From sequence record SRR31156797_2307: a stretch of DNA of 20,000 nucleotides; one strand, given 5' to 3'. The position numbers and the translations under genes are program-made. This document shows, piece after piece, positions 2-17,793 of the stretch; the first letter of the stretch is position 1, and each line of letters opens with the position of its first letter. Below the pieces are notes generated by a model. That model saw only the letters and a program-made list of their open reading frames with translations. It did not search any database and was not told the origin of the DNA.

Positions 2-190
2 AGTACAGGAGGTCAATGGATTTTTGTAATAGATAAAACAGAAGAATATGCCTATAAAAAAGAGATAAAATTAGGCAGGCAAAACCCATCTTGCTATGAA
101 GTCATAGAAGGATTAGAATCAGGAGATAAAGTTATCGTGTCCGGTTATGAGAATTATGGTGATGTTGAAAAACTAGTGTTAAAGAAATGA
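2..190 (+). CDS. 3' end of an efflux periplasmic adaptor (HlyD/MacA-type membrane fusion protein), partial
   Basis: Manual frame +2 translation STGGQWIFVIDKTEEYAYKKEIKLGRQNPSCYEVIEGLESGDKVIVSGYENYGDVEKLVLKK* matches the typical C-terminus of Bacteroidota adaptor subunits (LGRQNP..YEV.EGL..GD.VI). Its stop overlaps the next start (ATGA, 187-190). Confidence 0.85.
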   Translation, partial: STGGQWIFVIDKTEEYAYKKEIKLGRQNPSCYEVIEGLESGDKVIVSGYENYGDVEKLVLKK

Positions 191-1671
191 TAAATATGAA
201 GGTAGTAGTAGGTTTATTGTTTCTAATATATTGCTCAATAAATAGCTCTTTTTCTCAAGAAGTTAGGACGATTACTCTTGAAGAGGCGATTAATCTAGCA
301 CAGGACAAATCGTTAGATGCATTTATCTCGAAGCATATGTATTTGAAAAGTTATTGTGAGTTTAAAGCATATCAAGCCTCCAGAAAGCCTTGGTTAAGTC
401 TATATGCAGATCCTGTTATTTATAATAATTCGATTTCAAAAGTTACAGAAACTAGCGGAACTTCTCTTGTAAGATCTGAAAGTTTTGAAACTAATGGTAA
501 TATATCATTATCACAAACAATTGCCCCAACAGGTGGAAATGTTTTCATTAATTCAAGCTTTGATAGATTACTAGATTATGAATATGATAATACGTATTAT
601 AGTTCAGTTCCTGTTTCTATTGGTTTTTCCCAACCTCTATTTCAGTTTAACAAATACAAGTGGGAAAGAAAGTTGGAACCATTAAAATTTGAGAAAGCTA
701 AGTTGGAATATATTTCATCATCCGAGGAGTTAGCCATAAAAACAATTGGGTATTACTTTAATCTAATTGATGCAAAACTATCATACAATATTGCGTTAGG
801 TAATAGTGGTGCTGCTGATTCCTTATATTACAAGAGTAAAGGAAGATTTGAAAGAGGAGCAATATCTTTTAATGATCTTCAGCGTTTGGAATTAAATAAA
901 ATAAATGCAAAAATTGTTTGTGACAAGTCTAAATTATACTTACAACAAGTAGATTTCCAATTCAAAACTTTTTTGCGACTTCCGACAGATATCAATTTAG
1001 AATTGATATTACCATTAGATATTCCAAAGATTAAAATTAATCCCCAAGAAGCACTGGAAAAGTCTTTGATAAATAACCCTATTGTAATTGGATTTAAACA
1101 ATCTATGATTCAAGCTGATCGAGAAATAGCAAAAGTTAAAGGAGATTATGGTATAACATCAACAATAACAAGTAAATTCGGATTTAGTCAATCTGGAAAT
1201 TCAGTACATGAAGCATATAATGATTTGGACAAAGACAGAAGGGTGTCATTAGGATTGTATATCCCAATAATAAATTGGGGGATGAGAGATAAGCAGTTAG
1301 AATTGCGGAAATCAAATAAAGAAATAGTTACTGCGCAAATAGAAATGGACAGGATTAGTTTTGAACAAAATGTGATAATGAGTACACTAGAGTTTAATAT
1401 GAAGGAATCTATTTTGGAAAGTGCTCAGAAAGCAAATATTATTTCCGAAAAGACATATACAACAACCGAAGAAAGTTTTTTATTAGGTAAATCAAATCTC
1501 GAGACACTCTATGCTGCAAGGAATGAGAGGGATAATGCTTTAAGAGCATATTATAATTCAATCAGAGAATCTTGGAATAGTTATTATTTAATAAGGTATA
1601 TTACTTTATATGATTTTTGGGGGATGAAAAGTCTTTCAAAAGAATTTGATGACAAATTAGATATTAAATAA
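187..1671 (+). CDS. TolC-family outer membrane efflux channel
   Basis: Signal peptide, ITLEEAINLA start motif, FSQPLFQFN and LYIPIINWG strand ends, long helical segments, two-repeat architecture; coupled to the adaptor gene. Confidence 0.9.
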   Translation: MINMKVVVGLLFLIYCSINSSFSQEVRTITLEEAINLAQDKSLDAFISKHMYLKSYCEFKAYQASRKPWLSLYADPVIYNNSISKVTETSGTSLVRSESFETNGNISLSQTIAPTGGNVFINSSFDRLLDYEYDNTYYSSVPVSIGFSQPLFQFNKYKWERKLEPLKFEKAKLEYISSSEELAIKTIGYYFNLIDAKLSYNIALGNSGAADSLYYKSKGRFERGAISFNDLQRLELNKINAKIVCDKSKLYLQQVDFQFKTFLRLPTDINLELILPLDIPKIKINPQEALEKSLINNPIVIGFKQSMIQADREIAKVKGDYGITSTITSKFGFSQSGNSVHEAYNDLDKDRRVSLGLYIPIINWGMRDKQLELRKSNKEIVTAQIEMDRISFEQNVIMSTLEFNMKESILESAQKANIISEKTYTTTEESFLLGKSNLETLYAARNERDNALRAYYNSIRESWNSYYLIRYITLYDFWGMKSLSKEFDDKLDIK

Positions 1672-1819
1672 ATTATTAGAGATCCCATATCTCATGACCT
1701 GTGTATCTATAATCCATAGATATGTAATAATCTGATCGAAACTAATAATTTCATCTTTAATTAAATACAATACAGTTGAAATAATATTTATTTCAAAATG
1801 TAAATAATAAAATATCAGA

Positions 1820-2443
1820 ATGATAAAGACAATTAGTAAAGCAATTGAGATAATATTGATTGCAGTTTTATTAATACCTCTATTTAATTGCGACCAGCTT
1901 GATCTACAAAAATGCATTTTCTTATCGATTATAGGTTTTTTTTGTGCTGTAATACTTGTTACCAAAAGCTATTCTGTTAGTAGGTCACAATGGATGAATA
2001 TTGTTATTAGTATTTTTTTTATTTTTTCTTTCGAATTGACAGAAAAGAGTAACTATATAATTGTTTGTGGATATAGCGGAGATATAAAGAGTAGTTTGCC
2101 ACTTTCAACTATTTTATTGTTGTTTGCTCTATTACTTTTTATCATGAAGGTATGGTTACGTAAGGAAATGAAATACATAAAACATATCATTTCAGACACC
2201 TATTTAATAGTTGGTTTGTTATTGATCTCTCTACAACTATTAATTTTATTCATTCTGAACTTTTATTATCCAATTGGTTATAATAAGCTAATTTTATTAT
2301 TAAGTCGTTTGGTTATATACGCAATAATATTCTTGCTGATTTCTGATTTATTGAAAGATGATATCAAAATTAAAAGATTTAATATTTTGCTTTTACTAAG
2401 CTCGTTGTTAACAATTATAATTTTTATATCACAAAGTTTTTAG
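1820..2443 (+). CDS. Hypothetical polytopic membrane protein (about 6-7 TM segments)
   Basis: 207-aa ORF, almost wholly hydrophobic; ends 1 nt before the ligase-like gene. No family recognised. Confidence 0.65.
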   Translation: MIKTISKAIEIILIAVLLIPLFNCDQLDLQKCIFLSIIGFFCAVILVTKSYSVSRSQWMNIVISIFFIFSFELTEKSNYIIVCGYSGDIKSSLPLSTILLLFALLLFIMKVWLRKEMKYIKHIISDTYLIVGLLLISLQLLILFILNFYYPIGYNKLILLLSRLVIYAIIFLLISDLLKDDIKIKRFNILLLLSSLLTIIIFISQSF

Positions 2444-2444
2444 C

Positions 2445-3839
2445 ATGAAGCGTTTAATCCAAGGAATAGTCGATTATGGTTTAATCATTTCTTTAATAAT
2501 TTTTCCAGTTTCAATAAATATTGCTTTGGTCTCTCCTAGGGATCCTATTCATCCATTACTGGCTTTAAACTTGTCAATAGCTGATTTATTAATAGGATTG
2601 CTTTTATTTTTGTGGGGATTAAAAATTGTAATATTTAAGGAATTGCGTGAAATAATTTTTCCTCCTAAACCTGTTTTAGTGTTGGTTCTTATAGTAATTC
2701 TATCATTTGTAAATGCCAGTTCATTGGTTAATTGGGGCAAAGACACGATACAATTTATAGAATATCTCATATTTTATTATATCCTATTGCTTAATAATTT
2801 AAATACTCTTAATACAAAAGCATATTTAATCTTAATATATGCTCTGAGTTCTGTAGTTTTGATTATAGGATTTATACAATGGTTGGATTTTTCAGTAGAT
2901 CCATATTTAATAAGAGGTGTATTTGAGAACCGGAATATTTTAGGAATGTATTTATGCATGATTACACCTATCTTATTTACGGGTTTTTTATCTCAAAAAA
3001 AATTAGTCAGTAAATTGGCAATTGTAATTCTACTTATCCTAATAACAATAGTAATTACTTCGGGAAGTGCAATATTCTCAATTCTAATAAGTCTTATAAT
3101 TATTTCAAAAATTTATAGTAATAAATTATTATTAAGATTATCAGGGATTTTTTTAGTAATTACTATTTGCTATCCAATTGTAATGCCACGTAATAATGTA
3201 GAATCAATAGAAGATTTTCTAACAATATTTGAGAAAGGTAGTGTAAGTGATAATTATTATAGGAGGCTTTCTTTATTAAATGGTAAAGTTAGTAATGTTC
3301 TTTTACAAAAGAAGGTAGGAGAAAATAATTTACGAGTGTCTATTACTGATATGTTTAGCACTAAATCAAGTGAAATTCCAAAAGGAAATGCATATGAAGA
3401 ATTTGAAAATACTTTACAAGTAAAGAATCGGTATTTAGAAATGCAAGCTGCACTAAATGTTATTTCTGATAATACTCTTTTAGGTTATGGAATGGGGAAT
3501 TATAATACCCACTTAGGAGATGGGTTTAGAATATTTCCTAAAATAAACACAGGAGAACCTAATCAACATAATACATATCTTTTAGTAACCTTATCAACAG
3601 GTATTCTTGGATTAACTGTTCTAGTTTGGTTATTAGTATTTTATATTAGAAGAACATACTATTTATATAAAGCCAATCAAAACGATAAGAGATTGTTTTA
3701 CTTAGGGCTTATGGCCAGTATTATCGCCTGCTCAATTGAGGCTTTTTTTTCAAATTTATTTGTTGCAGGGCTTTTTGTGCCATTGATTTTTATTCTGTTT
3801 TTGTCGTCAAAAGATCAAATTAAATATGAGAATAACTAG
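2445..3839 (+). CDS. O-antigen ligase / O-oligosaccharyltransferase-like protein (Wzy_C family)
   Basis: Many TM segments, RGVFENRN motif, large periplasmic loop, R...QAALNVISDNTLLGYGMGNY and HNTYL...GILGL motifs. Confidence 0.85.
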   Translation: MKRLIQGIVDYGLIISLIIFPVSINIALVSPRDPIHPLLALNLSIADLLIGLLLFLWGLKIVIFKELREIIFPPKPVLVLVLIVILSFVNASSLVNWGKDTIQFIEYLIFYYILLLNNLNTLNTKAYLILIYALSSVVLIIGFIQWLDFSVDPYLIRGVFENRNILGMYLCMITPILFTGFLSQKKLVSKLAIVILLILITIVITSGSAIFSILISLIIISKIYSNKLLLRLSGIFLVITICYPIVMPRNNVESIEDFLTIFEKGSVSDNYYRRLSLLNGKVSNVLLQKKVGENNLRVSITDMFSTKSSEIPKGNAYEEFENTLQVKNRYLEMQAALNVISDNTLLGYGMGNYNTHLGDGFRIFPKINTGEPNQHNTYLLVTLSTGILGLTVLVWLLVFYIRRTYYLYKANQNDKRLFYLGLMASIIACSIEAFFSNLFVAGLFVPLIFILFLSSKDQIKYENN

Positions 3840-5994
3840 TTTACAATCAAAATTATTACTTGTATTAACTACGATTCTAGCTTCAGCTATAATTATTTCA
3901 ACTTCTATTATAACAATGGGATTGAAAGAATATATTTGGATGGAGGCAGAAGATGCAGTAGAAATAGATCCAAAACTTGAGATAAAAAGAAGCGTTGACG
4001 CTTCTGGTGAAAAATTTATTGAGAGTCAAATTCCAAGTCACTATATTGAAGCCTTTGCATCATATAAATTTAATACATTACACTCTGGAAATTATAAGAC
4101 CTGGATAAGAGCATATTGGCCTGGAGGGTGTAGTAATGCTTATCAAATAAAATGTGATGATTCTGGAAGACAAATTATTGGTAATGATAATATGATATTT
4201 TTGTGGCATTGGGTACCAGGTCCAACATACTCTTTTAATTCTGGAGATCATGAATTAGTAATATGGAATGATGAATATAATGCTAAAATTGATAAAATTT
4301 TAGTTACATCGGATTTATATTATACTCCAACAGGACTAGGTGATATTTATGATAATTTTAATATTGATTTTGAAAATGGTATTCCAAATATTATTCAAAC
4401 TCTAACTCCTTCAATATGGCATTTGGATTCAATAAATCGAAATAAGACCCTATATCTTCAAAGAATAGAGGGTGGAAATACAGAAGTATCAATTTTTGAT
4501 TTATGTGCTGTAAAAAAAGGGGCTTTTTCATTTATAGTGGAAAAGGATTCTATTGATATCAATACAGAAGTATCTTTGTTTTATAATTATATAAATAAAG
4601 AAAACTATAATCGGTTAAGCATAGGAGATAGTGATATAAGATTTATAGAAAATGTAAATAATAAAGAAAGAGTATTACAAATTGTACACTGTGAAGACAA
4701 TTTGTCAAAAAGCAATATGAATAAATATATGACAGTATTTGAAGATTCAGTTATATATCTAAAGAAAAATGGAAGGAACATTGCTAAGAGAGATTTTATT
4801 CCTTTAAATAATGGAAAGTTAGGATTAGGATCTACAACAGGAGGAATACATGTAGACGCTTTGTTATTTGAAAATGATTTGTCGGCTCAATTAAGGGAGA
4901 ATTTCTTTTGGGTTTGGACAAACGATTTGATGCAAGGTAGAAATACTTTATTTAAATGGTATGTCGAAAAAGGGCATTGGGAGTCACATATTGGCTCAAA
5001 GATTAAGTCTTTAGAAGGAAATACAACTAAAGGCAAAGAAGCGTTAATTACGACAGGAAAGGAATACTGGAAGAATTACAATTTTACATCTGCAGTAAAT
5101 ACATCAGGAGAGGCAGGAATCTGTTTTAATTTACAAGATAAGAATAACTATTACTTGTGTAAATTAGTAACTAATAAAAACAATAATGGAGAATTACAAT
5201 TATTAAAAGTTATAGACAACATTTCAACTGTTTTAGGATGTGAGGCTGTAAATATATGCAAGGATGAATGGAATAAGCTTACTGTTCAAACAAATAAAAA
5301 TGAAATTGAAGCTATCCTAAATGATAGGTCAATTCTTACTTGTAAGGATGAAAAGTTTCAAGATGGTAGAATCGGTTTTTGGTGTTTAGGCAATGATACC
5401 ATTAGCTTATTTGATGATATTAAAATAAGCCCAATCCAGAAGAGTTTTAATGAAAAAAGTGATTATAAGTTTGATCGAACCTATGAATTTGAGGAGAGAA
5501 CAAAAATAGCCATAGATTTTTGCGATTGGAAAAATTCAAGCAAGATCTTTATTAAAAAAGAATCACCTAAAATATATAAACACCTATTAAAAGATGTTCA
5601 ACTTATAAATAGGAAAACTTTTAATGGGGATTTTATTCTTTCATATAAACAGGTAAATCAATTGCCTGATGATATTGATTCTAATATATTACTAGAGATA
5701 GATAAAGGAGAGAAAGTGGACATATATAAAGTCGTTATAAGTAATGAGAAAATACTATTAATACGAAATACTGAAATAATAGAATCCGTTGAAATAAACT
5801 TAAAACGTAAAAGTTATAAAGTCCAATGTATTGAGGGTAAATTAAATTTATTCATTGATAATATATGCTATCTGAATTTTCCATTGGAATTGGGAGAGTA
5901 CTTTTATAAACTAGGATTTGGATTTGAAGGAATTGGGAAAGGGTATTTTGCGCCATATGAAGTAAAAGTAAAAGCAAAGAATTACAAAAATTAG
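3826..5994 (+). CDS. Membrane-anchored multidomain beta-sandwich protein (CBM6/35-like domain plus LamG/DUF1080-like domains)
   Basis: N-terminal TM helix; WMEAEDA...KIDKILVT jelly-roll; later WKNYNF...AGICF...NYY...WNKLTV...GRIGFW...FDDIKI pattern of concanavalin-like domains. Overlaps the previous gene by 14 nt. Confidence 0.6.
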   Translation: MRITSLQSKLLLVLTTILASAIIISTSIITMGLKEYIWMEAEDAVEIDPKLEIKRSVDASGEKFIESQIPSHYIEAFASYKFNTLHSGNYKTWIRAYWPGGCSNAYQIKCDDSGRQIIGNDNMIFLWHWVPGPTYSFNSGDHELVIWNDEYNAKIDKILVTSDLYYTPTGLGDIYDNFNIDFENGIPNIIQTLTPSIWHLDSINRNKTLYLQRIEGGNTEVSIFDLCAVKKGAFSFIVEKDSIDINTEVSLFYNYINKENYNRLSIGDSDIRFIENVNNKERVLQIVHCEDNLSKSNMNKYMTVFEDSVIYLKKNGRNIAKRDFIPLNNGKLGLGSTTGGIHVDALLFENDLSAQLRENFFWVWTNDLMQGRNTLFKWYVEKGHWESHIGSKIKSLEGNTTKGKEALITTGKEYWKNYNFTSAVNTSGEAGICFNLQDKNNYYLCKLVTNKNNNGELQLLKVIDNISTVLGCEAVNICKDEWNKLTVQTNKNEIEAILNDRSILTCKDEKFQDGRIGFWCLGNDTISLFDDIKISPIQKSFNEKSDYKFDRTYEFEERTKIAIDFCDWKNSSKIFIKKESPKIYKHLLKDVQLINRKTFNGDFILSYKQVNQLPDDIDSNILLEIDKGEKVDIYKVVISNEKILLIRNTEIIESVEINLKRKSYKVQCIEGKLNLFIDNICYLNFPLELGEYFYKLGFGFEGIGKGYFAPYEVKVKAKNYKN

Positions 5995-6038
5995 TTAAAC
6001 CTTGATTTTTAATTAGAAATATAGATTAAGATAATAAT

Positions 6039-7970
6039 ATGCTATTAAGGAAATTATATATATTTTTTTTTGTTGCTTTTTCATTATGGTCTTGTGTTGA
6101 GAAAAGAAAAGCAAATGATAAAGAATTTATTAAAATTGGTAATTATACAGTAACTAAAAGTCAATTTCTTCAAAAATGGAATGAATCTGACCGAATTAAC
6201 AGCAAGCAGATTCTTTTTGATAATTATATTAGTACTGGTATCTTAATAAATAATTTGTATCGAATATATGAAAATGAAGATGAATTTAATATGATTATCA
6301 ATCATAGCGAATTAGAAAGTCAGATTAAGGTTATAAAGAAACGATTATTAGATGACGAGAACCTAAAAATTAATGATATAAAAACTACCTACTCTACATC
6401 AAAAAATAAGATACTTCGTATCGATTATATCATGATTCCATCAGATAAACAAGATTTATACAATGATATACTAAATCTTAGTAATGCAGGGAGTACAATT
6501 TGGCAAATTGTAAATATGTCATCAGCTGACAAGTGGAAGAATGAAGGTGCAGTTTTCGTAACTCCAGCGATTGTTTATCCAGGATATTTTTTACCAAATA
6601 TCGCGGAAAAAGTATACAATATGAAAAGAGGAGACAAACTAGTTCTTGAAACAAAATCACATAATTATATAATAGAAAATCTTCAGATTTACAAGTCGAA
6701 TAACTTACACGAATTATTTATTGAAAAGAAAGTACGAAATAATTTAAATATAGCTAATGCCATTAAAACAGGTAAACTACTTTACCCAGATAGTTATATT
6801 TTAAAAAATATTAAGATTGACGACAGAATATTATCATCTTTGGATTTTTCTTTAAGTCCTCTTAAAGAAAGTTCTTCAAATCAAGATCTCATTGCAATTG
6901 TAGGTAGGGATTCAATATCTAAAGAGGACTTTTTAGATAAGGTTTTATCATTGCCATTTGATATTCAATTACTATTTAGCAATAAAACAAGCTGTAAAAA
7001 AGCTTCAATTGCTCTTTTAAAGAATATGTTTGAAAATAGGGTTGCTCAAGTCTCAACAAATGTTAGTTTAAAAGATGAAGTCTTGGAGCAAGTAAAGCTT
7101 AAACTCAACAAATCAGAGAATAAAGATACAATTGCCATAATAGATGAGTGGGTAAATAGTCATTGGTTAAAGCCTCCTCCAGAATATGAAACAAAAAATG
7201 TTGTTATAAACTTTAATAAGATAGATACATTACTAATTCCCATAAGTAAAAATTATTTAAAACAAACACTAGCAAGAAGTAAGAATTGGGAATTAACAAT
7301 GGCTCAATTTCAAAAGATTTTTGATGGTTTATCAGAAATATCTAAACAAGAAGTTCTGTTAAATAATAATTCTCAAAAATTGATTAATTATCTAATTCCA
7401 TCAGACATTGATCGTCGAGATATTGTTTTTAACAATAAACTATTGAAACAATTCGTTAAAATTAATTCAGATATCTTAGGTTCAAGAAATGGTTTTTTTA
7501 GTGAATCAGACACGATTGCAGAGTTTGGTGGTGTAATTTTCACGGTAGGTGATTTAAGGTGGAAAATTTACAATTTGCCTGAAGATTTAAGGACTGATTT
7601 TTATGATGAAAAGAAAAAAAGTAGTGCTTTAAGAAAATTGGTATTAAATGAATACTGGTTAAATATAGGAAAATCACAAGGTTTTTATGATAATCCAGAA
7701 TTTCTTACTCAGGTTAACTGTGAAATGAAAAATATTTTAGTAAAGGTATTGTATGAACATTTTATAAGGCTTGATCAAATTAATGTAAGTGATGAAGCTA
7801 TCAATTTATATTTACGGAGATCTATTGACGTAACAAATCAGCAACATTTAAAAGATTTTTTACTTAATGATACTTCTTCAATAAGTATAGATAAGGAGGT
7901 TGTGGATAATCTGGGAATTAATTATGCTAAGTCAGTATTTCTAAATAAGATTAAACTATATGAAAATTAA
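6039..7970 (+). CDS. Lipoprotein, SurA/PrsA-like foldase with degenerate parvulin domain
   Basis: Lipobox (FSLWS-C19); repeated SurA/PrsA N-domain-like starts (IKIGNYTVTKSQF, IAIVGRDSISKEDF, IAEFGGVIFTVGDL); GFYDNPEF motif; parvulin-like segment FLPNIAEKVYNMKRGD..LETKSHNYII. Confidence 0.6.
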   Translation: MLLRKLYIFFFVAFSLWSCVEKRKANDKEFIKIGNYTVTKSQFLQKWNESDRINSKQILFDNYISTGILINNLYRIYENEDEFNMIINHSELESQIKVIKKRLLDDENLKINDIKTTYSTSKNKILRIDYIMIPSDKQDLYNDILNLSNAGSTIWQIVNMSSADKWKNEGAVFVTPAIVYPGYFLPNIAEKVYNMKRGDKLVLETKSHNYIIENLQIYKSNNLHELFIEKKVRNNLNIANAIKTGKLLYPDSYILKNIKIDDRILSSLDFSLSPLKESSSNQDLIAIVGRDSISKEDFLDKVLSLPFDIQLLFSNKTSCKKASIALLKNMFENRVAQVSTNVSLKDEVLEQVKLKLNKSENKDTIAIIDEWVNSHWLKPPPEYETKNVVINFNKIDTLLIPISKNYLKQTLARSKNWELTMAQFQKIFDGLSEISKQEVLLNNNSQKLINYLIPSDIDRRDIVFNNKLLKQFVKINSDILGSRNGFFSESDTIAEFGGVIFTVGDLRWKIYNLPEDLRTDFYDEKKKSSALRKLVLNEYWLNIGKSQGFYDNPEFLTQVNCEMKNILVKVLYEHFIRLDQINVSDEAINLYLRRSIDVTNQQHLKDFLLNDTSSISIDKEVVDNLGINYAKSVFLNKIKLYEN

Positions 7971-8787
7971 GAATATGAAGATAGGAATTTTCTGCTTATT
8001 TTATTTATTAGCTTTCAATTATACATATGGCCAGTTTCATGCAGTACATATACCTGATGATCTTTTATCTTCAGTGATTATTGATGGAGATACTACGGAT
8101 TGGAATTGGGTTCCAGAGAAGTATTTTATTTATGGAGAAGATTTAATTAATGTTGCTCCAGAATCTCAGAATCCAAATATTATGAATTGTAAGGTTATTA
8201 TCGGATGGAATGACGTTTCTAATAAGTTATATATATTGGCTCATATATTTGATGATATAAATATCACCAAATCGCCCGTTTTTTGGCAAAACGATATTAT
8301 ACAATTTGCATTATGTCCATTAAATATGGAAGGATATTATGGAAATGGTTCGAATACATTTAATAATGTAATATCTGGGCGTTTTGTAGATATCGTTTCA
8401 GAGAATAGAAAAGGTCTTCAAATTGGTCATGGTCCCAAATGGTTAATAAATGAAAATGGTCATATAAATTGGCGTTATAAAAAAATAGTACATCAGGAGA
8501 GTCCATATTTTGAATATATATATGAGATATCTATGTCACTTTGGGATAAGTGGGATGAATTTTCTGCACAAGAAAGTAATAGATGCAATTTAGTTCCCAA
8601 TAAGGCCTTTTGGCTTAACTTAATAATTAATGATGCAGATACTATCAATATGAGAAAAGCGGAGTGGACTTTCTCAGATGATTTTAATTGGTGGAATAGA
8701 GTAATTGATTACCCAAGGTGTATATTGGATCCGGCTATTTGTAATAGTATATCATGGGATGGTGTTGAGTATATTATAGAGGATTAG
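7960..8787 (+). CDS. Secreted CBM9/DOMON-like sugar-binding protein
   Basis: Signal peptide, IIDGDTTDW motif, GWNDVSNKLYILAHIFDD, YIYEISM, LNLIINDAD, typical of CBM9-like domains. Confidence 0.7.
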   Translation: MKIKNMKIGIFCLFYLLAFNYTYGQFHAVHIPDDLLSSVIIDGDTTDWNWVPEKYFIYGEDLINVAPESQNPNIMNCKVIIGWNDVSNKLYILAHIFDDINITKSPVFWQNDIIQFALCPLNMEGYYGNGSNTFNNVISGRFVDIVSENRKGLQIGHGPKWLINENGHINWRYKKIVHQESPYFEYIYEISMSLWDKWDEFSAQESNRCNLVPNKAFWLNLIINDADTINMRKAEWTFSDDFNWWNRVIDYPRCILDPAICNSISWDGVEYIIED

Positions 8788-8839
8788 TAAATCTTATCAA
8801 TTTAAAAGCTGTTTTACCTAACAAATTGATAAGTAAACC

Positions 8840-9964
8840 TTGAGAAAGAATATCTTAATTATTTCAAATTCTATTAGGTATAGTGGGGCAGAAAAGAGTT
8901 TATTGGATTTATTGTTAAGTACACATATGTGTCAGTATAACTTCTTTGTTATAATCCCGAATAAGGCAACCTATATAAGCTTATTTCCAAGTTCATGCAT
9001 TATTCTCAAACTTCCATTATTATTTTTTCAAAGATCATATAATCCGGTTCTTTGGTTTATTTATTTGATAAATATACCTTATGTAATCATACGAATGCTA
9101 TTTATTATAAAACGCTATAAAATTGATATTATATATTCAAATACAATAAAGGCGGCTATTTATGGTACATTATCTGCTTTATTCTCAAAAAGAAAGAGTA
9201 TATGGCATGTTAGGGATAATAATAATAGTATAGTAGAACAGGCTTTAGCTTCTTTGAATCATAAATTGATTTGTATCTCTCATTATATTTATAGACAGCT
9301 ACGTGTAGAGAAGGCAAAAAAAACATTAATTTATGGCGGGATTGATACAGAGACCTGGAATTGTAATCTATTTAAGGATCATTTGACTAGCGGTACTGAA
9401 AACAGTAAGGTAAATGGAAAATTAGTTGTAAATATCAGTCAAATTACTCCATGGAAAAATCAGATAGATTTTATTCGAGCTGCAAGGAAAATAAAAGATG
9501 AATACTCAGATGTGCATTTTCTAATTATAGGGGACGTATTAAATAGTAAAGATTTGGATTATAAAATCCAAATTCAAAAGGAGATATTGAAATTTGATTT
9601 GCAAAATGATGTTAAAATGATTGGTTTTAGAGCGGATATCATGGCAATCGTTTCTAAAGCGGATATAGTTATCCATCCTGCATTAGGAGAGCCTTTAGGT
9701 AGAGTTGTATTAGAGGCTATGTCAATGAAAAAGCCTGTGGTAGCATACGATTGTGGAGGGCCAAAAGAAATAATTATTAATGGAAAGACAGGTTATCTTG
9801 TTGAAGAAAGAAATTCTAATCAATTAGCACAAATGGCTATTAAACTTTTAAACGATTCCAACTTAGCAGATGAGATGGGGAAGTGGGGAAGACAAAGAAT
9901 TGTAGAACTATTTGATATAAAAAACAATATTAATTCCATAATGACAACTCTGGATAACTTGTAG
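8840..9964 (+). CDS. Glycosyltransferase family 4
   Basis: SGAEKSL N-terminal motif, WHVRD, ITPWKNQ, EPLGRVVLEAM (EX7E); TTG start. Confidence 0.92.
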   Translation: MRKNILIISNSIRYSGAEKSLLDLLLSTHMCQYNFFVIIPNKATYISLFPSSCIILKLPLLFFQRSYNPVLWFIYLINIPYVIIRMLFIIKRYKIDIIYSNTIKAAIYGTLSALFSKRKSIWHVRDNNNSIVEQALASLNHKLICISHYIYRQLRVEKAKKTLIYGGIDTETWNCNLFKDHLTSGTENSKVNGKLVVNISQITPWKNQIDFIRAARKIKDEYSDVHFLIIGDVLNSKDLDYKIQIQKEILKFDLQNDVKMIGFRADIMAIVSKADIVIHPALGEPLGRVVLEAMSMKKPVVAYDCGGPKEIIINGKTGYLVEERNSNQLAQMAIKLLNDSNLADEMGKWGRQRIVELFDIKNNINSIMTTLDNL

Positions 9965-10000
9965 TATCAATCTTAAAGTAATTATTTTTCTTATTTGTAA

Positions 10001-11089
10001 ATGAAAGTATTGTTAAATGGATCTCAATTATGCGACACTAATTCAGGTGTACAATATTACTGTAAGCATCTTTTTAATTCATTCCAAAATTTAAATGAAC
10101 AAGGTATAACGATTAATTTGTATAGGAGAACCTTAATTGAAAAACATAAGTATTTGTTTCGATTAATTAATAATAGTCGGATATTAAGAATAGTTAAAGA
10201 AAATTTGTCATTACCTATTTTTTTGAAAAGAAATCGTTTTGATTTATATCATTCACCTAATTATGTTCTTCCGTTGTATTGTAGAATAAATTCTGTTGTT
10301 ACTGTCCACGATCTAATTACATTTGATTTTCCTAGATATTGCAAAATAGAATCTGTAATTTATTTTAGATTATTTCTTCCAATTAGTTTAAAGAAGGCCA
10401 ATACAGTAATAGTTGTGTCTAATAAAACAAAGCAAGACATTTTAAAAAGGTTTAAAATATCAGGAGAGAAAATTGAAGTTGTCCACCTAGGTATTTCCTC
10501 AATTTATAGGAAAGTAATAAAGCCAAGTATATTAACAAAATATGATATTCCTTCAAAGTATATTCTCTTTGTTGGAAATATAGAGCCTAAAAAGAATTTA
10601 GTAAGATTGATTAATGCATATTACAAAATTTACTTAAAAAGAGAAATTACTCACAAACTTGTAATTGTAGGAAAAAGAGGTTGGAAATGTAACGATGTAT
10701 TTAAAACTGTTAAAGATCTTAAGCTTGAAAATTATGTGATTTTTACAGGGTATATTCCAGAAAGAGATATGCCTGTATTATATTCTATGGCTGATTTATT
10801 TGCTTTCCCTTCTTTATATGAAGGTTTTGGTATTCCTCCGTTAGAAGCAATGGCATGCGAAACTCCGGTCCTTACATCAAATGCCGGTGCATTACCTGAA
10901 ACTACAGGAGGAAATTGTTTAATGGTTGATCCATATAATATAGATCAAATTGCAGATGGCATATACGCTTTATTAACAAATAATAAAATACGAATGGAAT
11001 ATATTGAAAAGGGAAAGATGTGGTCATTGAAATTTGATTGGAAGAAAACGGCAAAAAATACATTGGATATCTATAAAAAAGTTAAATAA
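10001..11089 (+). CDS. Glycosyltransferase family 4 (MtfB/WbaZ mannosyltransferase-like)
   Basis: SGVQYY, VTVHDL, VGNIEPKKNL, FPSLYEGFGIPPLEAMAC. Confidence 0.93.
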   Translation: MKVLLNGSQLCDTNSGVQYYCKHLFNSFQNLNEQGITINLYRRTLIEKHKYLFRLINNSRILRIVKENLSLPIFLKRNRFDLYHSPNYVLPLYCRINSVVTVHDLITFDFPRYCKIESVIYFRLFLPISLKKANTVIVVSNKTKQDILKRFKISGEKIEVVHLGISSIYRKVIKPSILTKYDIPSKYILFVGNIEPKKNLVRLINAYYKIYLKREITHKLVIVGKRGWKCNDVFKTVKDLKLENYVIFTGYIPERDMPVLYSMADLFAFPSLYEGFGIPPLEAMACETPVLTSNAGALPETTGGNCLMVDPYNIDQIADGIYALLTNNKIRMEYIEKGKMWSLKFDWKKTAKNTLDIYKKVK

Positions 11090-11155
11090 TTAGTTCATAT
11101 ACAGTATGGACTAGTTGTAAATTCGTGTATTTAGATAGTAAACTAACATTATAAA

Positions 11156-12703
11156 ATGAAGCAATATCTATTGAAAATTAAATTTTTATGTACCAACACA
11201 ATTCTTAAATCATCAGCAGGAGTTTTGCTAATTACACTTTTTGTGAAATTGTTTGGTTATGCAGAAAAATTGATTTTGGCTAAATACTTTGGTACTAGTG
11301 ATCAGGTTGATGTTTACTTATTAGTTTTGACTATAGTATTAAGTATATTTTACTTTTTTAGGGAGGTGATTGAACCAGGGGTTTTAAATGTTTTTCTTAA
11401 ATGTATTGGAAACAATAAAGAAACGGAAGCATGGGTTATTTTTAATAAAGTTTTTCAATTGATCTTAGGATTAACAATTGCTTTGAGTTTTATAGCTATA
11501 TTATTTCCACAATTATTTACTAGTGTCTTTGCACCTGGATTTGAAGGTGAAAAATTATTACTTGTTAACCAATTAGTCCCAATAGTTATTCCTGCTGGAA
11601 TATTTCTTTCCTTATCGACCTTAACTAGTATAACCCTTAATGGACTTAAGTTATTTGTATTGCCAGCTTCAGGAGAACTTGCTTTTAAAGGAGCAATTGT
11701 TATTTGTATGATTTTATTTTATAAGGAATACGGAATTGTAGGAGCGAGTATAGGTATTGTCTTAGGCTCAATTGGAAAATTAGTTGTTCACATAACTAAA
11801 TTATATAAAAAAGTTACATTTCGTAGAGTTAAAATCAACGCCAAGTATAAAAAACAGATCTGGCAACTAACATGGCCTCTTCTAGTTGGAGTGAGTTTTT
11901 CGCAATTAAGCGGATTAGTTGATAATATTTTTGCATCTTATCTTCAAGAAGGAGCCATTGCAGCATTGAGTTATGCAAAAAAAGTTGTTGAATTACCTGT
12001 TATATTATTTCCCTACGTTATAAGCATAGTTATTTTTCCATTTTTTACTCAGTTATCTGTGGAAAAACAAACCTTTAAATTAAATAAACTTTTGTTAGAC
12101 TCATTAAAGTGGATTGTTATAGCTTTTATTCCTATTTCGATATTTTTTGTTATTTATTCAAGGCCAATCATTGAGATTGTTTTTCAGCGAGGTGCATTTG
12201 ATGTAAATTCCACATTGTTAACTGCAGATCCGTTTCTTATATATTCTACAGGACTAGTTTTTTTTGCAATAGAAACGATTCTTGTAGTTTTCTATTATTC
12301 GAAAGCAGATACTATTACTCCTGTCTTTGTAGGAATAGTTTGTGTGATTATAAATATATTGTTAACATGGATATTTATTCAATATATGGAGTACTTAGGA
12401 ATTGCAATAGCCTTTGTTGTTCAAAAGTGTATTAAAAATATAGTGTTATTATTTCTTTTAAAACGTAAAATTACTATTGCAAATCAAGGTCTTTGGAGAA
12501 AGTTATTTAAAATTATTATTGGATCAACCATATTCGCATTTTTTGTTGTTATAAGCAAATTGTTGTATATGAATCTGGAAATTAGTCTCTTGTTAAAGTT
12601 AAGTACAATGGGATTATTTTTCATAATATCTGGATTAATTTATATTGTCGTTTTGGTTTATCTTAATGTAATAGATTTTCGTATAGTAGGCCAAAACGAG
12701 TAA
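11156..12703 (+). CDS. murJ: MurJ/MviN-family (MOP superfamily) flippase paralogue
   Basis: About 14 TM segments; FAPGF, VDNIFASYL..GAIAALSYA...ELP, FQRGAFD, DTITPV motifs. It sits among GT4 genes, so it is probably not the housekeeping copy. Confidence 0.85.
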   Translation: MKQYLLKIKFLCTNTILKSSAGVLLITLFVKLFGYAEKLILAKYFGTSDQVDVYLLVLTIVLSIFYFFREVIEPGVLNVFLKCIGNNKETEAWVIFNKVFQLILGLTIALSFIAILFPQLFTSVFAPGFEGEKLLLVNQLVPIVIPAGIFLSLSTLTSITLNGLKLFVLPASGELAFKGAIVICMILFYKEYGIVGASIGIVLGSIGKLVVHITKLYKKVTFRRVKINAKYKKQIWQLTWPLLVGVSFSQLSGLVDNIFASYLQEGAIAALSYAKKVVELPVILFPYVISIVIFPFFTQLSVEKQTFKLNKLLLDSLKWIVIAFIPISIFFVIYSRPIIEIVFQRGAFDVNSTLLTADPFLIYSTGLVFFAIETILVVFYYSKADTITPVFVGIVCVIINILLTWIFIQYMEYLGIAIAFVVQKCIKNIVLLFLLKRKITIANQGLWRKLFKIIIGSTIFAFFVVISKLLYMNLEISLLLKLSTMGLFFIISGLIYIVVLVYLNVIDFRIVGQNE

Positions 12704-12806
12704 GATTATTTTTCGTAATAGGGTTGTGTTGAAAATATTATGTTTGTATCATTTTATAGGAACTAATGCTCAAATCATAGAACCAATTAAAGATTTATTC
12801 AAATAA

Positions 12807-13997
12807 ATGAAAATTGTATTCATAATTGAAAGGTTTCCGTCTCCTACAGAATATTTTATACTAAATGAAATATTACTATTAGAAAAATATAATTATGATA
12901 TTCAAATAGTAGCATTAAGAAAACAGAAAAAATTTCCGAATATACCAGATTTAAAGAAACTTAAAGCTGAAATTCATTATATACCTTTATTTCATTTTTA
13001 CTTCCCAATTGTATCAATTCTGCGTTCTCTTAAATGCTTAATAGCTTTCTTATTTTCGATAGATAACTCTATTGTACGTTATAATTTTAAATTTTTAAAA
13101 TCAATACGATATTTTGGAATTAGTCAATATTTGGCTAAAAGAGTATTGTCTTGTGATCATATACACGCACATTTTGCTTTTATTCCTATTGATATAGCTT
13201 ATTATCTTTCAAAAGAACTTAAAGTAGACTATAGTGTAACTGTTCACTCTCAAGATATTTATACAAATGCAGATAAAATTAAGGAACATCTTCCTAGATT
13301 AAAATTTCTTATTACGTGTACTGAATACAATAGAAGCTTTTTAAATTTCATTACATCTAATAGTTATAGGAGTAAAATACATAGAGTATATCACGGTATC
13401 AATCTTGAAAAATGGTTATTACCAAATTCAAATTTCAAGCGTACTGGTAAAATACAATTATTAACTATTGCTCGACTTGTTGAGAAGAAAGGCCTGGTTT
13501 ACTTAATTCATGCTATAGAAGGCCTTGTAAAGTGTGGGATCAGTGTAAATTGTTTGATAATTGGAGAAGGTCAACTACAAAGTAAATTAGAGGATATAAT
13601 TGCAATAAAGAAATTGAATAAATTTATTAATATAGTTCCTTTTGTTTCTCAGAATGAATTGAAATCGTATTATAGGAAAGCAGACTTCTTTATACTTCCA
13701 TCTATTATTAGTTCAAATGGAGATAGGGATGGACTCCCAAATGTAATAGTAGAGGCAATGATATGTGGTGTTCCTGTTATTTCAACGCCTGTTTCTGCTA
13801 TTCCAGAGGTAATAAAGCATAAAGAAACAGGAATTCTTGTCAAATCTATGAGTTCGCAGTCTATAATCGAAGGTATTAAATGGTTAATAGAAAACCCAGA
13901 GTTAAGCCAACAAATAGCAGAAAATGCAAAAAAGTTAATAAAGAAAAAGTTGGATATAAATACCTGCATTATGGATTTTGTAGAAATCTTAAAATAA
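12807..13997 (+). CDS. Glycosyltransferase family 4 (WcaL/AmsK-like)
   Basis: FPSPTEYFILNEI, HIHAHFA, ARLVEKKG, GDRDGLPNVIVEAM. Confidence 0.92.
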   Translation: MKIVFIIERFPSPTEYFILNEILLLEKYNYDIQIVALRKQKKFPNIPDLKKLKAEIHYIPLFHFYFPIVSILRSLKCLIAFLFSIDNSIVRYNFKFLKSIRYFGISQYLAKRVLSCDHIHAHFAFIPIDIAYYLSKELKVDYSVTVHSQDIYTNADKIKEHLPRLKFLITCTEYNRSFLNFITSNSYRSKIHRVYHGINLEKWLLPNSNFKRTGKIQLLTIARLVEKKGLVYLIHAIEGLVKCGISVNCLIIGEGQLQSKLEDIIAIKKLNKFINIVPFVSQNELKSYYRKADFFILPSIISSNGDRDGLPNVIVEAMICGVPVISTPVSAIPEVIKHKETGILVKSMSSQSIIEGIKWLIENPELSQQIAENAKKLIKKKLDINTCIMDFVEILK

Positions 13998-14068
13998 GCA
14001 ATTTCTTTATATAGTTAAACGTGTTAGTATCTTTTCTGTAAAGAGATTTTCAATTCTAATAAATTAAG

Positions 14069-15220
14069 GTGAAAAGGGTAAAGATTTTATATGGGTTAGA
14101 GGCAGTTGGAGGCGGTGCTCTAAAGCATCTCGTTTATCTTGTAACCAATTTAGATAGAGCATGTTTTGATATAACTATTATATTGACAAACAAAAGGAAT
14201 GAAGATGCTAATGAATATATAGAGATACTAAGAAAATCAGAAGTAAAGCTTTTGTTTTATCCGATTTCAAAGAACATTAATATTATAAGTGACGCTATAA
14301 TAGTAAGTAGACTGGTTCTCTTTATCAAAAAAGAAAGATTCGACATTGTTCATGCTCACAGTTCTAAGGCTGGAGGTGTGTTTAGAATAGCATCATTTAT
14401 ATCTGGTGTTAAAAACATCTTATATACCCCGCATTGTTTTTATTACCTTGGGTTATCCGGTATAAAGAGGAAACTGTTTGTTCATATAGAAAAGTTTCTT
14501 GGTAATTTGACAACTTATGTAATTATTTCAGAGGGAGAGTTCAAAGAGACTGCTCGAAACCAAATTGTAGCAGAAAACTCTATATTAACAATTAATAATG
14601 CTATTAATTTTAATCTAAACAAACAAAACTCTCTAATAAATGATACTATGAATAAATATAACTTGGTAGGAAGTAAATTTATAGTAGGAGCAATTGGAAG
14701 GTTAACATATCAGAAGGACTGGAAAACTTATATTTTTGCTGCGAACGAAGTTCTTAAAACTCATAAAGATATTATCTTTTTAATAGTAGGAGACGGAGAA
14801 TTAAAGAATGATATCCAGAACTTAATTTTAAAGTTAAAATTGGAAGAAAGTATTATTTTAACTGGGTATGTGGAAAAAATACATGAAATATATGGAATGA
14901 TTGATGTATTAGTAAATACATCAATTTGGGAAGGGCTTCCTTATGTTATTTTAGAAGCAATGAATTACAAACGTCCAGTAGTTGCAACGGATGTGAAAAA
15001 TAAATCCGTTGTTAGAAATGGTAAAAGCGGGTTTACTGTTCCGATTAAAGATTATAAAACAACTGCAAGTAGAATATGTGAATTAATTGATGATAGAGAT
15101 AGAGTTATCAAAATGGGAAATGAAGGCTATAATATACTTATAAAGAAATATTCTTTTGAAAAATTTGTCCAAAAGCATTCAGATCTTTATAAAAGTTTAG
15201 GAAAAAAGATCATTTATTGA
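14069..15220 (+). CDS. Glycosyltransferase family 4
   Basis: VGGGALKH, VHAHSSKAG, YTPH, IGRLTYQK, WEGLPYVILEAM; GTG start. Confidence 0.92.
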   Translation: MKRVKILYGLEAVGGGALKHLVYLVTNLDRACFDITIILTNKRNEDANEYIEILRKSEVKLLFYPISKNINIISDAIIVSRLVLFIKKERFDIVHAHSSKAGGVFRIASFISGVKNILYTPHCFYYLGLSGIKRKLFVHIEKFLGNLTTYVIISEGEFKETARNQIVAENSILTINNAINFNLNKQNSLINDTMNKYNLVGSKFIVGAIGRLTYQKDWKTYIFAANEVLKTHKDIIFLIVGDGELKNDIQNLILKLKLEESIILTGYVEKIHEIYGMIDVLVNTSIWEGLPYVILEAMNYKRPVVATDVKNKSVVRNGKSGFTVPIKDYKTTASRICELIDDRDRVIKMGNEGYNILIKKYSFEKFVQKHSDLYKSLGKKIIY

Positions 15221-15934
15221 TTAGAAATAAGTAAAAATGAAGTCATAAAACTGGGTTATGATAGATATTTACCCTTTCCTGCAAATACAGTCTAACCTCT
15301 TATCAAACACCTGTAAAATAGACATTTTTATTTGATTATGATTAGGTAGTTTTCCTTTTATTATTTCATTTTTAATTATGCCAGGCTTTTCGGTCGGTGT
15401 ATACCAATGTATTACGGTTTAACCTTAATAAGGTATATAAATATTGAAAAGGAGAGCCAAAGTTTTCAACTTTTGCATATATGCCACCATATTAGTACTT
15501 TCTTTTGGTTCAAGAAGTTATCTTCAACATGTTTTGTTAGGGTGAATTAATGCAAAACAATAGACTTTTAGTGTTGCCAAAGTTATATTGTTATGTGAAT
15601 GTAGGGCAAAAATCAGGAACAGGCTCATGATATTGTGCAGCACCATGATAAACCAGAAGGGCGCTACTGTAGGCCTAATATATTTTTAGGCAAAAGTTCT
15701 CAATCCCAAAATATTGTTTTAGTTCTTTGGTTCTGTTTTCGCAATCGGATCTTGGTTCGTGTGTTGTAAAGATTCTAAATTGCATCTAGAGTAAGGTTTA
15801 AGTTGGTGACTTAACAATCGTATCTGCAATCAGGTAGATCATCAGAAAGTTATTCTCATGAGAACAGTAGAATATTATTTTCTTTAATTATTATTTTTAT
15901 AAGGTGTCGTAATACTAATAACAAAAGGGAAATT

Positions 15935-16391
15935 ATGGATATATTTGACACTCCTTATGAAATAGAGCAGTCAATGATTACTATTCATACATTATTGGAT
16001 TCAATTGCCAAGAAAGGTGATGTGATTGGTTATTTCTTTGACTCAAAGAATTCTCTCTTTATTAATGGAAAAAAACAATTTGATTTAACTGATAGTTTTA
16101 AAGTAAAGAACCATTATACTTCAGATAATGGTTATTGCAAAGTTCAATGTTGGGATACTAAATAAAGCAATATTATTACAGAGGAACTTAATTTATGGTG
16201 GCTATTATGATAAAATCTTTGAAATATTCTTGTACAATTATAAACCTGCAGAGGAAAATAGATATGAAAACCTATTGTATTTAACGGTTAATCATAAGCA
16301 GGACACAATTGTATCTAATAATGCAACAGAAAAATTAGTTCAAATTGATAGGATTAAGAATATTTCCCTAGTAAAACCTATAAGTTATTGA
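15935..16391 (+). pseudogene. Probable frameshifted hypothetical gene (ORFs 15935-16165 and 16128-16391)
   Basis: Two short overlapping ORFs in adjacent frames with protein-like composition. The second frame is open only after a stop at 16104-16106, which places any shift at 16107-16165. Confidence 0.4.
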
Positions 16392-16564
16392 TTGTGTATT
16401 TGTCAATAAAATAAATAGAATTAAATAATTCCAGCAGCAATGCTGTGATTTTCTTTTATCTTTTCTTCCACATATCAGGATCCATCCTAGTGTACGAAAC
16501 TGCCGAGATACCAGTAAGTGCTATATTGGTTTCTGTGTAATGTATAATCTGTAAATAAAATAAG

Positions 16565-16601: not shown

Positions 16602-16683
16602 GATATCTAGGGAGCAAAGTATTTTGAGCCACAAACTTATCAAATGTAGTAATAGATATGGTATGTTTGTTCCACTCTTTATA

Positions 16684-17790: not shown

Positions 17791-17793
17791 TAA

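Follow-up and report, generated by a model that had tools for sequence, protein, structure and literature searches.

Among the described glycan systems, Psl of Pseudomonas aeruginosa, in which PslK is a MurJ/MviN-like protein and PslJ a Wzy_C-like one, comes close in its scheme to the gene cluster at positions 2-15220 of SRR31156797_2307, the 20,000-nucleotide stretch of DNA analyzed here as a whole (hereafter, the window); this cluster encodes four GT4 glycosyltransferases (GTs), a MurJ-family flippase, and a Wzy_C-family membrane enzyme. As outlined in passages of PMC13434223, the Wzx and Wzy roles for a pentasaccharide unit fall to PslK and PslJ, and the likeness covers a flippase, a polymerase, and a lipid-linked unit on which an initiating transferase and several GT4s have acted. 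Psl, however, needs the co-polymerase PslE and the outer membrane polysaccharide export (OPX) protein PslD, whereas no polysaccharide co-polymerase (PCP) or OPX gene was found in the loci examined here. These carry instead a β-sandwich partner fused or adjacent to the Wzy_C enzyme, a small membrane protein (TM207), a SurA-like lipoprotein (lipo643), a CBM9-like protein (p275), and an exporter based on an outer membrane efflux protein (OEP) of the TolC family. The first-pass annotation had not recognized this combination as a described system, a judgment that stands for the accessory and export parts but not for the flippase/Wzy_C/GT4 scheme, which is close to the known Psl type. Full-text literature searches, including work on Bacteroidetes O-glycosylation, returned no description of the gene combination, which is not proof of absence, and neither Pfam nor NCBIfam has a system model for the Wzy_C protein, for its partner, or for TM207 and lipo643.

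Other described systems resemble single parts of the cluster. The ligase WaaL of C. metallidurans (structure 7tpg) shares the Pfam family and the overall fold of the Wzy_C enzyme, and the region of its proposed catalytic His aligns. However, the two proteins are only ∼13% identical, no more than 20 of 29 members of the family described here have the aligned His, and waaL loci have no obligatory partner protein, in-cluster flippase, or GTs. O-oligosaccharyltransferases (O-OTases) of the PglL/PglS type belong to the Wzy_C superfamily as well, use a lipid-linked donor, and get by with a minimal gene set that has no PCP or OPX proteins, whereas the present enzyme has no PglL_A, Wzy_C_2, or NCBIfam match, no acceptor was found, and the His is not conserved. 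The XrtA/PEP-CTERM exopolysaccharide (EPS) loci, in which an EpsD-type parvulin and an O-antigen-ligase-like gene are found too, are resembled by the fourth GT (GT4d, to stp2) and two hydrolases (to hydr1/hydr2_PEP), all below the cut-off, and by a σ54 regulator (to PEP_resp_reg, 418 bits versus a cut-off of 502.6). The exosortase (PF09721) is nevertheless encoded in only two of five carrier genomes and never near the cluster where a comparison is possible; the copy of genome G002 lies 3.3 Mb from the cluster and that of G109 on another contig, and a link to exosortase was rejected. BcsA-BcsB provides a functional analogy only: BcsB is a single-pass periplasmic partner of BcsA with multiple carbohydrate-binding domains, and the likeness is that of a polytopic glycan-forming enzyme with such a partner, adjacent or fused. 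The families are unrelated, however, and BcsA is a processive GT2 synthase that acts on UDP-glucose with no lipid-linked unit. On the export side, MacAB-TolC, type I secretion, and DevBCA-HgdD combine an adaptor with a TolC-family OEP, as seen here, and ATP-binding cassette (ABC) parts occur in loci L002, L004, L050, and L054 and in G002; unlike in these tripartite ABC exporters, no ABC gene lies within the window itself.

A conserved, probable glycan-assembly cluster

On balance, and with moderate confidence, we read the window as a polyprenyl-phosphate-dependent Wzx/Wzy-type (Psl-like) glycan cluster that lacks PCP and OPX genes and probably works in conjunction with a tripartite exporter. 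Its G+C content is ∼29%, and the list of open reading frames (ORFs) gives twelve plus-strand genes, all co-directional, between positions 2 and 15220, with a gene-poor stretch behind them:

2-190, plus strand: adaptor C-terminal end, 62 aa (sub-cut-off RND_mfp and DarC-type ABC adaptor matches)
187-1671, plus strand: OEP/TolC-family protein, 494 aa (PF02321)
1820-2443, plus strand: TM207, small polytopic membrane protein without a known family (hydropathy, family hidden Markov model [HMM])
2445-3839, plus strand: Wzy_C-family membrane enzyme, 464 aa (PF04932)
3826-5994, plus strand: LamG722, membrane helix plus four β-sandwich domains, 722 aa (weak 3keto-disac_hyd/LamG-like match, AlphaFold2 [AF2] model)
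6039-7970, plus strand: lipo643, probable lipoprotein, SurA/PrsA-like, 643 aa (family profile)
7960-8787, plus strand: p275, secreted CBM9-like carbohydrate-binding protein, 275 aa (family profile)
8840-9964, plus strand: GT4a glycosyltransferase (Glycos_transf_1, 132 bits)
10001-11089, plus strand: GT4b glycosyltransferase (Glycos_transf_1, 128 bits)
11156-12703, plus strand: MurJ-family flippase of a cluster-specific subfamily (PF03023, TIGR01695)
12807-13997, plus strand: GT4c glycosyltransferase (Glycos_transf_1, 134 bits)
14069-15220, plus strand: GT4d glycosyltransferase, last cluster gene of the window (Glyco_trans_1_4, 109 bits)
15221-16803, no strand: gene-poor, ∼1.6 kb (single 87-aa ORF at 16128-16391)

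The left edge of the window cuts the open frame 2-190, and the start of the adaptor gene lies beyond it. Neighboring genes overlap by 4 nt (187-190), 14 nt (3826-3839), and 11 nt (7960-7970) or abut (2443/2445), and 148 bp separate the end of the OEP gene (1671) from the start of the TM207 gene (1820). The ORF list thereby reproduces the single co-directional cluster of the first-pass annotation, with identical coordinates and junctions. The reported lack of Wza/Wzc/Wzz, nucleotide-sugar, and initiating-transferase genes in the window was likewise borne out, as Pfam and NCBIfam searches of the window proteins detected no Poly_export, Wzz, sugar-nucleotide enzyme, or Bac_transf family, and a tblastn search for the last of these (see below) agreed. 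The products of 1820-2443, 6039-7970, and 7960-8787 had no Pfam match below an E value of 0.01.

Homologues of the Wzy_C protein (alignment A1) led to 39 genome loci and 78 metagenome loci, some of them one contig present in two collections (e.g., L009 and L069), and the window proteins were compared with these loci by tblastn. The order TM207, Wzy_C, LamG722, lipo643, p275, GT4a, GT4b, MurJ, GT4c, GT4d is kept in a Prolixibacteraceae chromosome (G001; loci L001 and L047) and in a Bacteroidales metagenome-assembled genome (MAG; G002, loci L003 and L048). Locus L057 keeps part of it, and shorter stretches are found in L004 (Tannerella sp.), L006, L050, L054, L055, L059, L061, and L063. The gene set is a conserved unit, not a chance neighborhood; the proposal that these genes form one system, for which co-occurrence across genomes had been named as the check, is upheld by conserved synteny in rare Bacteroidales genomes and metagenome contigs. 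The cluster is indeed rare, with a close flippase homologue in 1 of 101 sampled Bacteroidales genomes, namely G001, and a search for related loci with the MurJ protein alone as the query returned none.

Outside this group, the Wzy_C gene was found at 21 to 32% identity in Lentisphaerota, Victivallales, Kiritimatiellia, Akkermansia, and MAGs labeled "PVC group" (Planctomycetota, Verrucomicrobiota, Chlamydiota), as well as in two Armatimonadota MAGs, one Sumerlaeia MAG, one "FCB group" (Fibrobacterota, Chlorobiota, Bacteroidota) MAG, one Ca. Zipacnadia MAG, and an unclassified bacterium (L007). Three loci (L009, L010, and L025) have the order GT4b, GT4c, MurJ, GT4d, small partner protein, Wzy_C, which L019 matches from MurJ onward, and L007 has GT4a, GT4b, GT4c, MurJ, GT4d, and, further on, Wzy_C and the small partner protein. 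The cross-phylum core consists of three or four GT4s, the MurJ paralogue, the Wzy_C enzyme, and a membrane-anchored β-sandwich partner. Lentisphaerota carry this smaller core, and other PVC bacteria, Armatimonadota, and Sumerlaeia carry the Wzy_C-partner pair, joined in some loci by GT4s and the flippase. MurJ-family and Wzy_C genes are linked in four Bacteroidales-type loci, in L007, and in four Lentisphaerota loci. Three loci that are neither PVC nor Bacteroidales (L007, at 8331-19362, L008, and L017) have their own surroundings: a gene resembling LplA/B-type lipoate ligases precedes the Wzy_C-partner pair, and a protein of ∼690 to 750 aa with no or a weak Pfam match follows it, succeeded by a tetratricopeptide repeat (TPR) protein. 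The latter exceeds 1400 aa in L007 and L008, where a PMT_2 (GT-C) glycosyltransferase comes next, and is cut by the contig end in L017.

The flippase (PF03023, 221.7 bits) passes the cut-off of the MurJ equivalog model TIGR01695 (247.1 versus 235.55 bits), and an automatic "MurJ" name would mislead annotation. Among the proteins of G001 and G002, only the cluster copy matches PF03023 strongly, and the other 40 of 41 Bacteroidales genomes reach at most 46 bits, so that the usual lipid II flippase of Bacteroidales must have diverged from this family model. In five genomes, PVC or other, a stronger MurJ is encoded elsewhere, the cluster copy being a weaker second or third paralogue. A maximum-likelihood tree places the cluster copies of Bacteroidales, L007, and Lentisphaerota together with a second Akkermansia copy in a single clade (support 90/75), to which neither the PVC housekeeping copies nor the usual Bacteroidales group belongs. 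On these three grounds (the low Bacteroidales scores, the PVC paralogues, and the separate clade), a housekeeping MurJ was rejected. The cluster flippase is a dedicated paralogue of a cluster-specific subfamily, as had been suggested from the window alone, and lipid II is very probably not its substrate. The Akkermansia paralogue falls within the cluster clade, yet its contig contains neither GT4 nor Wzy_C genes, the components being dispersed. Three Lentisphaerota genomes (G003:C53, G004:C3, and G005:C26) hold a further MurJ paralogue ∼5 to 17 kb from another Wzy_C gene, and pairing of a MurJ paralogue with Wzy_C may be common in this phylum.

The four GT4 genes score 106 to 134 bits with Glycos_transf_1, and the best NCBIfam match of GT4d is stp2 (TIGR03088; 116 bits, below the cut-off). 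Orthologues of GT4a lie at the same position in L001, L003, L006, L057, and L059 (37 to 41% identity) and in L007 (29%). GT4b is 47 to 56% identical in the Bacteroidales-type loci and 38 to 40% in the Lentisphaerota loci and L007, GT4c reaches 42 to 43% in G001 and G002 and 27 to 29% in the Lentisphaerota loci and L007, and GT4d reaches 49 to 51% in G001 and G002 and 26 to 32% in the PVC loci and L007. In the cross-phylum loci, every GT region best matches a different window GT, which points to a conserved rather than a hypervariable glycan. A separate set of GTs was seen in L048 (6965-10819), where three tandem GT28/EryCIII-like (UDPGT) glycosyltransferase genes and an MsbA-like ABC gene adjoin the G002 cluster and are convergent with it.

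An initiating transferase, which the first-pass annotation had proposed to look for upstream, is present in relatives but not in the window. A Bac_transf gene directly follows Wzy_C in L010, L013, and L020, and in G001 such a gene (L047:2520-3092) overlaps the end of GT4d, a place that corresponds to the gene-poor stretch 15221-16803 of the window. Beyond this stretch, the plus strand of 16804-19097 encodes a serine resolvase (PF00239, E value of 2.7e-48), a 112-aa ORF, a small helix-turn-helix (HTH) protein, and a Fic/DOC protein (PF02661, E value of 1.5e-15), which together look like a small mobile or addiction-type module at the expected site of the initiating transferase. A DUF4172-Fic gene is also inserted between GT4c and MurJ in L009. 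Further searches with the window were negative: Rfam, tRNA, and repeat scans gave nothing relevant, the promoter and terminator scan gave counts similar to those of shuffled sequence and was uninformative on the 1671-1820 gap, the first 52 bases had no exact match in metagenome or viral contigs, and megablast found no match among plasmids.

The Wzy_C enzyme and its periplasmic companions

The Wzy_C protein matches PF04932 with 40.3 bits (Pfam cut-off, 31.7) and is thus a member of this superfamily; 28 of 30 homologues are full-length at 39 to 46% identity, and 29 of the 30 carry PF04932. No PglL_A, Wzy_C_2, or other Pfam family besides PF04932, and no NCBIfam model, matched the protein at an E value below 0.01. 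The AF2 model (pLDDT 80.8, pTM 0.84) has ∼12 helices and a periplasmic insert at residues ∼249 to 361. Foldseek placed WaaL first (7tpg_B; E value of 3.9e-5, TMt 0.58), ahead of weak SEDS matches, and 7tpg was the sole match of the family profile in the PDB (E value of 1.2e-4). Invariant residues of the family are Y272, E332, K366, N368, T369, and E371, and R273 and R274 are kept in 28 and 27 of 29 members, respectively. HMMER aligned H375 of the window protein with a His of the 7tpg chain, in a column that holds His in 20, Asn in 6, and another residue in 3 of the 29 sequences. According to sections of PMC12800693, catalysis by WaaL has been proposed to involve the equivalent His, and its replacement by Ala inactivates PglS. 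The partial conservation of this column weakens a strict WaaL/PglL-type assignment but does not discriminate between polymerase and ligase; polymerization rather than transfer is the favored reaction.

The gene downstream of Wzy_C encodes LamG722, for which the AF2 model (pLDDT 80.1) predicts a helix (residues 2-31) and four β-sandwich domains of ConA/LamG/CBM-like type (35-165, 178-350, 378-536, and 548-718). Foldseek matched it to laminin-G/neurexin proteins, the best single-domain match being the carbohydrate-binding module CBM66 (4azz, TMt 0.85). LamG722 residues ∼35 to 170, which cover domain 1, have their homologue in the small protein encoded by the distant loci (alignment A3), and the invariant residues of this domain include E40, A41, E42, Y90, W93, W98, C102, W127-H128-W129, and D156. 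Domain 1 adjoins Wzy_C in 39 loci (duplicate contigs among them) and in the window, in either gene order, and the two are fused in one reading frame in L005, L006, L052, and L023, the last from a Sumerlaeia; in L022, a Wzy_C relative with long flanks, no partner was found. On the strength of this conserved adjacency and of the four fusions, domain 1 is a conserved partner of the Wzy_C enzyme.

TM207, with ∼6 hydrophobic segments by hydropathy and no Pfam or NCBIfam match, is encoded directly upstream of Wzy_C in every Bacteroidales-type locus. An HMM built from seven copies matched solely before Wzy_C genes (E values of 1e-72 to 1e-90), apart from a marginal match at the same position in L008 (E value of 0.02). 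Atlas leads connect it to PglL_A, WcaD, and DUF5935 clusters (0.90 to 0.92; leads only). In L006 (11041-12522) and L059 (1584-2897), a second TM207 gene, followed by a frameshifted and truncated Wzy_C copy, lies between the p275 gene and GT4a.

The N-terminus of lipo643 is lipobox-like by eye (…SLWSC). The family evolves fast, with 19 to 23% identity among six copies, and its direct domain matches are faint: the best Pfam trace of the window copy is SurA_N_3 at an E value of 0.035, and SurA_N_3 and Rotamase_2 appear in two and one of the six members, respectively. A word-based homologue search found nothing, but an exhaustive profile search returned 381 matches at E values of ≤1e-3, 48 of them at ≤1e-30. 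All 20 sampled weaker matches (E values of 1e-8 to 1e-11) carry a PpiC rotamase domain, with SurA_N in 18 as well, and 3 of 11 sampled stronger ones carry C-terminal PA14, DUF1349, or Laminin_G_3 domains. The reach of the profile into rotamase/SurA_N proteins makes "SurA-like" fair at the level of remote homology, and a fair description of lipo643 would be that of a putative remote relative of the SurA_N and parvulin chaperones (PrsA/PpiD/SurA type). A lipo643 homologue follows LamG722 in all 10 related loci long enough to show it. As for p275, CBM9_1 matches four of six family members (best E value of 2.7e-6; window copy, 0.51), the family profile matches the CBM9 structure 1i82 (E value of 1.4e-6), and an Atlas lead agrees with CBM9. 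The SurA-like foldase lipoprotein and the two lectins of the first-pass annotation thus find support, the former through a remote profile relation and its constant presence with the cluster in Bacteroidales-type loci, the latter as the four β-sandwich domains of LamG722, with CBM66 as the best single-domain match, and the CBM9-like p275. A fused, membrane-anchored lectin-type partner and the other carbohydrate-binding proteins make a polysaccharide product likelier than a protein substrate. Directly upstream of TM207, G002 holds a second tandem set of paralogues resembling the 722-, 643-, and 275-aa proteins (L003, 3934-9021).

At the upstream end of the window, the adaptor fragment gave NCBIfam matches to RND_mfp (E value of 3.6e-7) and to a DarC-type ABC adaptor (E value of 5.8e-6), both short of the cut-off because the fragment comprises no more than 62 aa. 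Over 61 aa, it shares 65.6% identity with an HlyD-family gene product of L002, a locus whose Wzy_C is 44% identical and where an ABC ATPase (ABC_tran), an ABC-2 permease (ABC2_membrane), the HlyD adaptor, and an OEP are encoded upstream of the cluster. Judged from these matches, 2-190 probably encodes the end of a periplasmic adaptor, the membrane-fusion protein in a tripartite pump of the ABC type. In L002, an insert of ∼560 bp (3697-4257) with, by eye, broken frames and repeated GCTGAT-type motifs separates the HlyD and OEP genes. The window OEP has a signal-peptide-like N-terminus and two PF02321 repeats (99 bits, above the Pfam cut-off), and scores 49 bits with TIGR01844 (cut-off, 225). 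With the cluster-linked OEPs, it shares 22.6% identity (L004, E value of 7e-13; L001, 9e-10), and its matches to the L002 OEP and to an OEP of an RND (resistance-nodulation-division) operon have E values of 0.04 and 0.13.

An OEP gene lies near the cluster in 8 of the 11 Bacteroidales-type loci with usable upstream sequence (the window, L001, L002, L003/G002, L004, L050, L051, and L054). The OEPs of G001, G002, and G108 are orthologous (51 to 55% identity), each beside its cluster, in genomes that hold ∼10 to 29 OEP genes each (at two domain matches per gene). An NPCBM_assoc protein adjoins the OEP in L001, G002, L050, L051, and L054, the G001 copy being anchored in the membrane by its C-terminus and coiled-coil-looking in its N-terminal part; an MsbA-like ABC gene and two α/β-hydrolase genes lie near the OEP in L004, L050, L054, and G002, and a σ54 regulator and a kinase are encoded in L001, L003, L004, L050, L051, and L054. 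No Poly_export (OPX) or Wzz (PCP) family was detected by Pfam in 104 neighboring ORFs of the related loci. The ABC/adaptor/OEP set of the L001-type loci differs from that of the window and L002, and the occurrence of two non-orthologous sets next to one type of cluster speaks for a functional connection. We lean, if only slightly, toward a coupling of the window's own adaptor and TolC protein to the glycan cluster. The first-pass annotation had counted both as parts of the system; an OEP with an ABC exporter does recur beside the cluster, but the closest relative of the window has neither OEP nor adaptor in the 10 kb upstream.

Alternative readings and implications

In the Psl-like reading, an initiating phosphoglycosyl transferase, encoded in relatives but not in the window, and the four GT4s would build an oligosaccharide on the cytoplasmic face, the dedicated flippase would move the lipid-linked unit to the periplasmic face, and the Wzy_C enzyme, with TM207 and the domain 1 partner, would polymerize or transfer it. 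The extra lectin-like domains, the CBM9-like p275, and the SurA/PrsA-like lipo643 may handle the product in the periplasm. Given their recurrent linkage in Bacteroidales, an ABC exporter, an adaptor-like protein, and the OEP would probably take it across the outer membrane, the exporter set of the window being the adaptor end and the TolC-family gene. We infer these functions as a whole from protein families and gene context.

Several observations weigh against this reading. The polymerase and ligase roles of Wzy_C cannot be told apart by sequence. When three Bac_transf proteins from homologous clusters were searched against the window by tblastn, the best E value was 0.55 and no remnant was seen, and G002 likewise has no Bac_transf gene after GT4d. 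TolC-family channels are not known as polysaccharide exporters, and a literature search found no description of a TolC-family polysaccharide export system or of a tripartite exporter linked to a Wzy_C/MurJ glycan cluster. The 148-bp gap before TM207 speaks against export coupling, and the 22.6% identity of the window OEP is equaled by generic OEPs of G109 and G110, the best of which reach 21 to 23%, so that orthology with the cluster-linked OEPs is not demonstrated. No OEP was found in L005 (5.6 kb upstream), L006 (4.3 kb upstream), or L057. The last of these is the closest relative of the window by MurJ (69 to 70% identity), and its 10 kb upstream hold unrelated genes with neither OEP nor adaptor; the coupling of the window's own TolC/adaptor pair is therefore not proven.

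Several of these facts are what one would expect if the adaptor and TolC genes were the end of an unrelated upstream efflux operon and the glycan cluster began at TM207, an alternative that we regard as a real, if tentative, possibility. The gap, the undemonstrated orthology in genomes with many OEP genes, the generic efflux adaptors among the best family matches of the fragment, and L057, where the cluster begins at TM207 after unrelated genes, all fit it. However, the same type of adaptor, at 65.6% identity, precedes the cluster in L002, distant as that locus is, and six other loci show tight linkage to an OEP/ABC set of another kind; two non-orthologous exporters are hard to ascribe to chance.

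A WaaL-like ligase that places the flipped unit on a lipid acceptor, with an MsbA-like ABC protein flipping the acceptor and a tripartite pump or Lpt exporting the glycolipid or lipooligosaccharide (LOS), appears unlikely. TolC-dependent glycolipid export does exist in cyanobacteria (DevBCA-HgdD), no PCP or OPX is present, and WaaL 7tpg is the best and only significant structure and sequence match of the Wzy_C protein, which in the window keeps H375 and the R273/R274 pair. An MsbA-like ABC gene (TIGR02203, 458 bits, below the cut-off) and two α/β-hydrolase or thioesterase genes also recur beside the cluster. Yet the window, L001, L002, and L057 have no MsbA-like gene, the His is not kept across the family, and the carrier genomes hold 4 to 10 other Wzy_C genes, any of which could be WaaL. 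Moreover, WaaL is not known to depend on a partner of the lectin type, on a CBM9 protein, or on a lipoprotein resembling SurA.

Least probable of these alternatives, and rather improbable, is a PglL-type O-OTase that glycosylates a periplasmic protein or peptide, chaperoned by the SurA-like protein and exported via adaptor and TolC. An initiating transferase, GTs, a flippase, and one Wzy_C protein without PCP or OPX are the set that such a system needs; SurA/PrsA-like proteins are protein chaperones by family, a tripartite exporter is linked to the cluster, and the one-to-one conservation of the GTs across phyla, unlike that of hypervariable O-antigens, fits a conserved glycan. PglL homologues also often adjoin their target genes, as stated in a part of PMC3643930, which the partner adjoining Wzy_C in 39 loci would match. 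However, the fusion of partner and enzyme in four loci fits a subunit better than a substrate, PF04932 is the only family matched, and the WaaL-aligned His, whose counterpart is required in PglS (PMC12800693, in part), is missing from 9 of the 29 proteins. The many lectin-type domains, some of them fused to lipo643 relatives, suggest a glycan client, and translations and alignment revealed no low-complexity Ser/Thr-rich candidate or precursor gene. Transfer to an exported protein or peptide, as put forward in the first-pass annotation, has thus gained no backing from acceptor, domain, or catalytic residue, and protein O-glycosylation in general is neither supported nor excluded.

Returning to the Psl-like cluster with a probable exporter, its common GT set, shared from Bacteroidales to Lentisphaerota and L007, suggests one defined glycan in anaerobic, sediment, and gut communities. 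The natural fusions of Wzy_C with its partner would be a convenient object for structural work on Wzy_C enzymes. It is conceivable, although we think it unlikely, that the cluster embodies a further outer membrane route for polyprenyl-assembled glycans. Lectin-like and SurA-like proteins would replace PCP and OPX proteins, interchangeable ABC-adaptor-TolC machines would expel a polymer made by Wzy_C and its lectin-type partner, and the core would make one glycan common to Bacteroidales and Lentisphaerota and possibly to other phyla with the Wzy_C-partner pair. In the portions of PMC9601211 and PMC12475490 that bear on this question, the known Wzx/Wzy routes across the outer membrane are Wza-type OPX proteins, composite OPX/β-barrel translocons, and, recently, secretins. 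The cluster has a modest chance of representing a new outer membrane export route for lipid-linked glycans; the known export routes would gain a conserved cluster that does without OPX proteins and brings a TolC-family channel and an ABC exporter, together with a chaperone-like lipoprotein and a lectin-type partner fused to Wzy_C.

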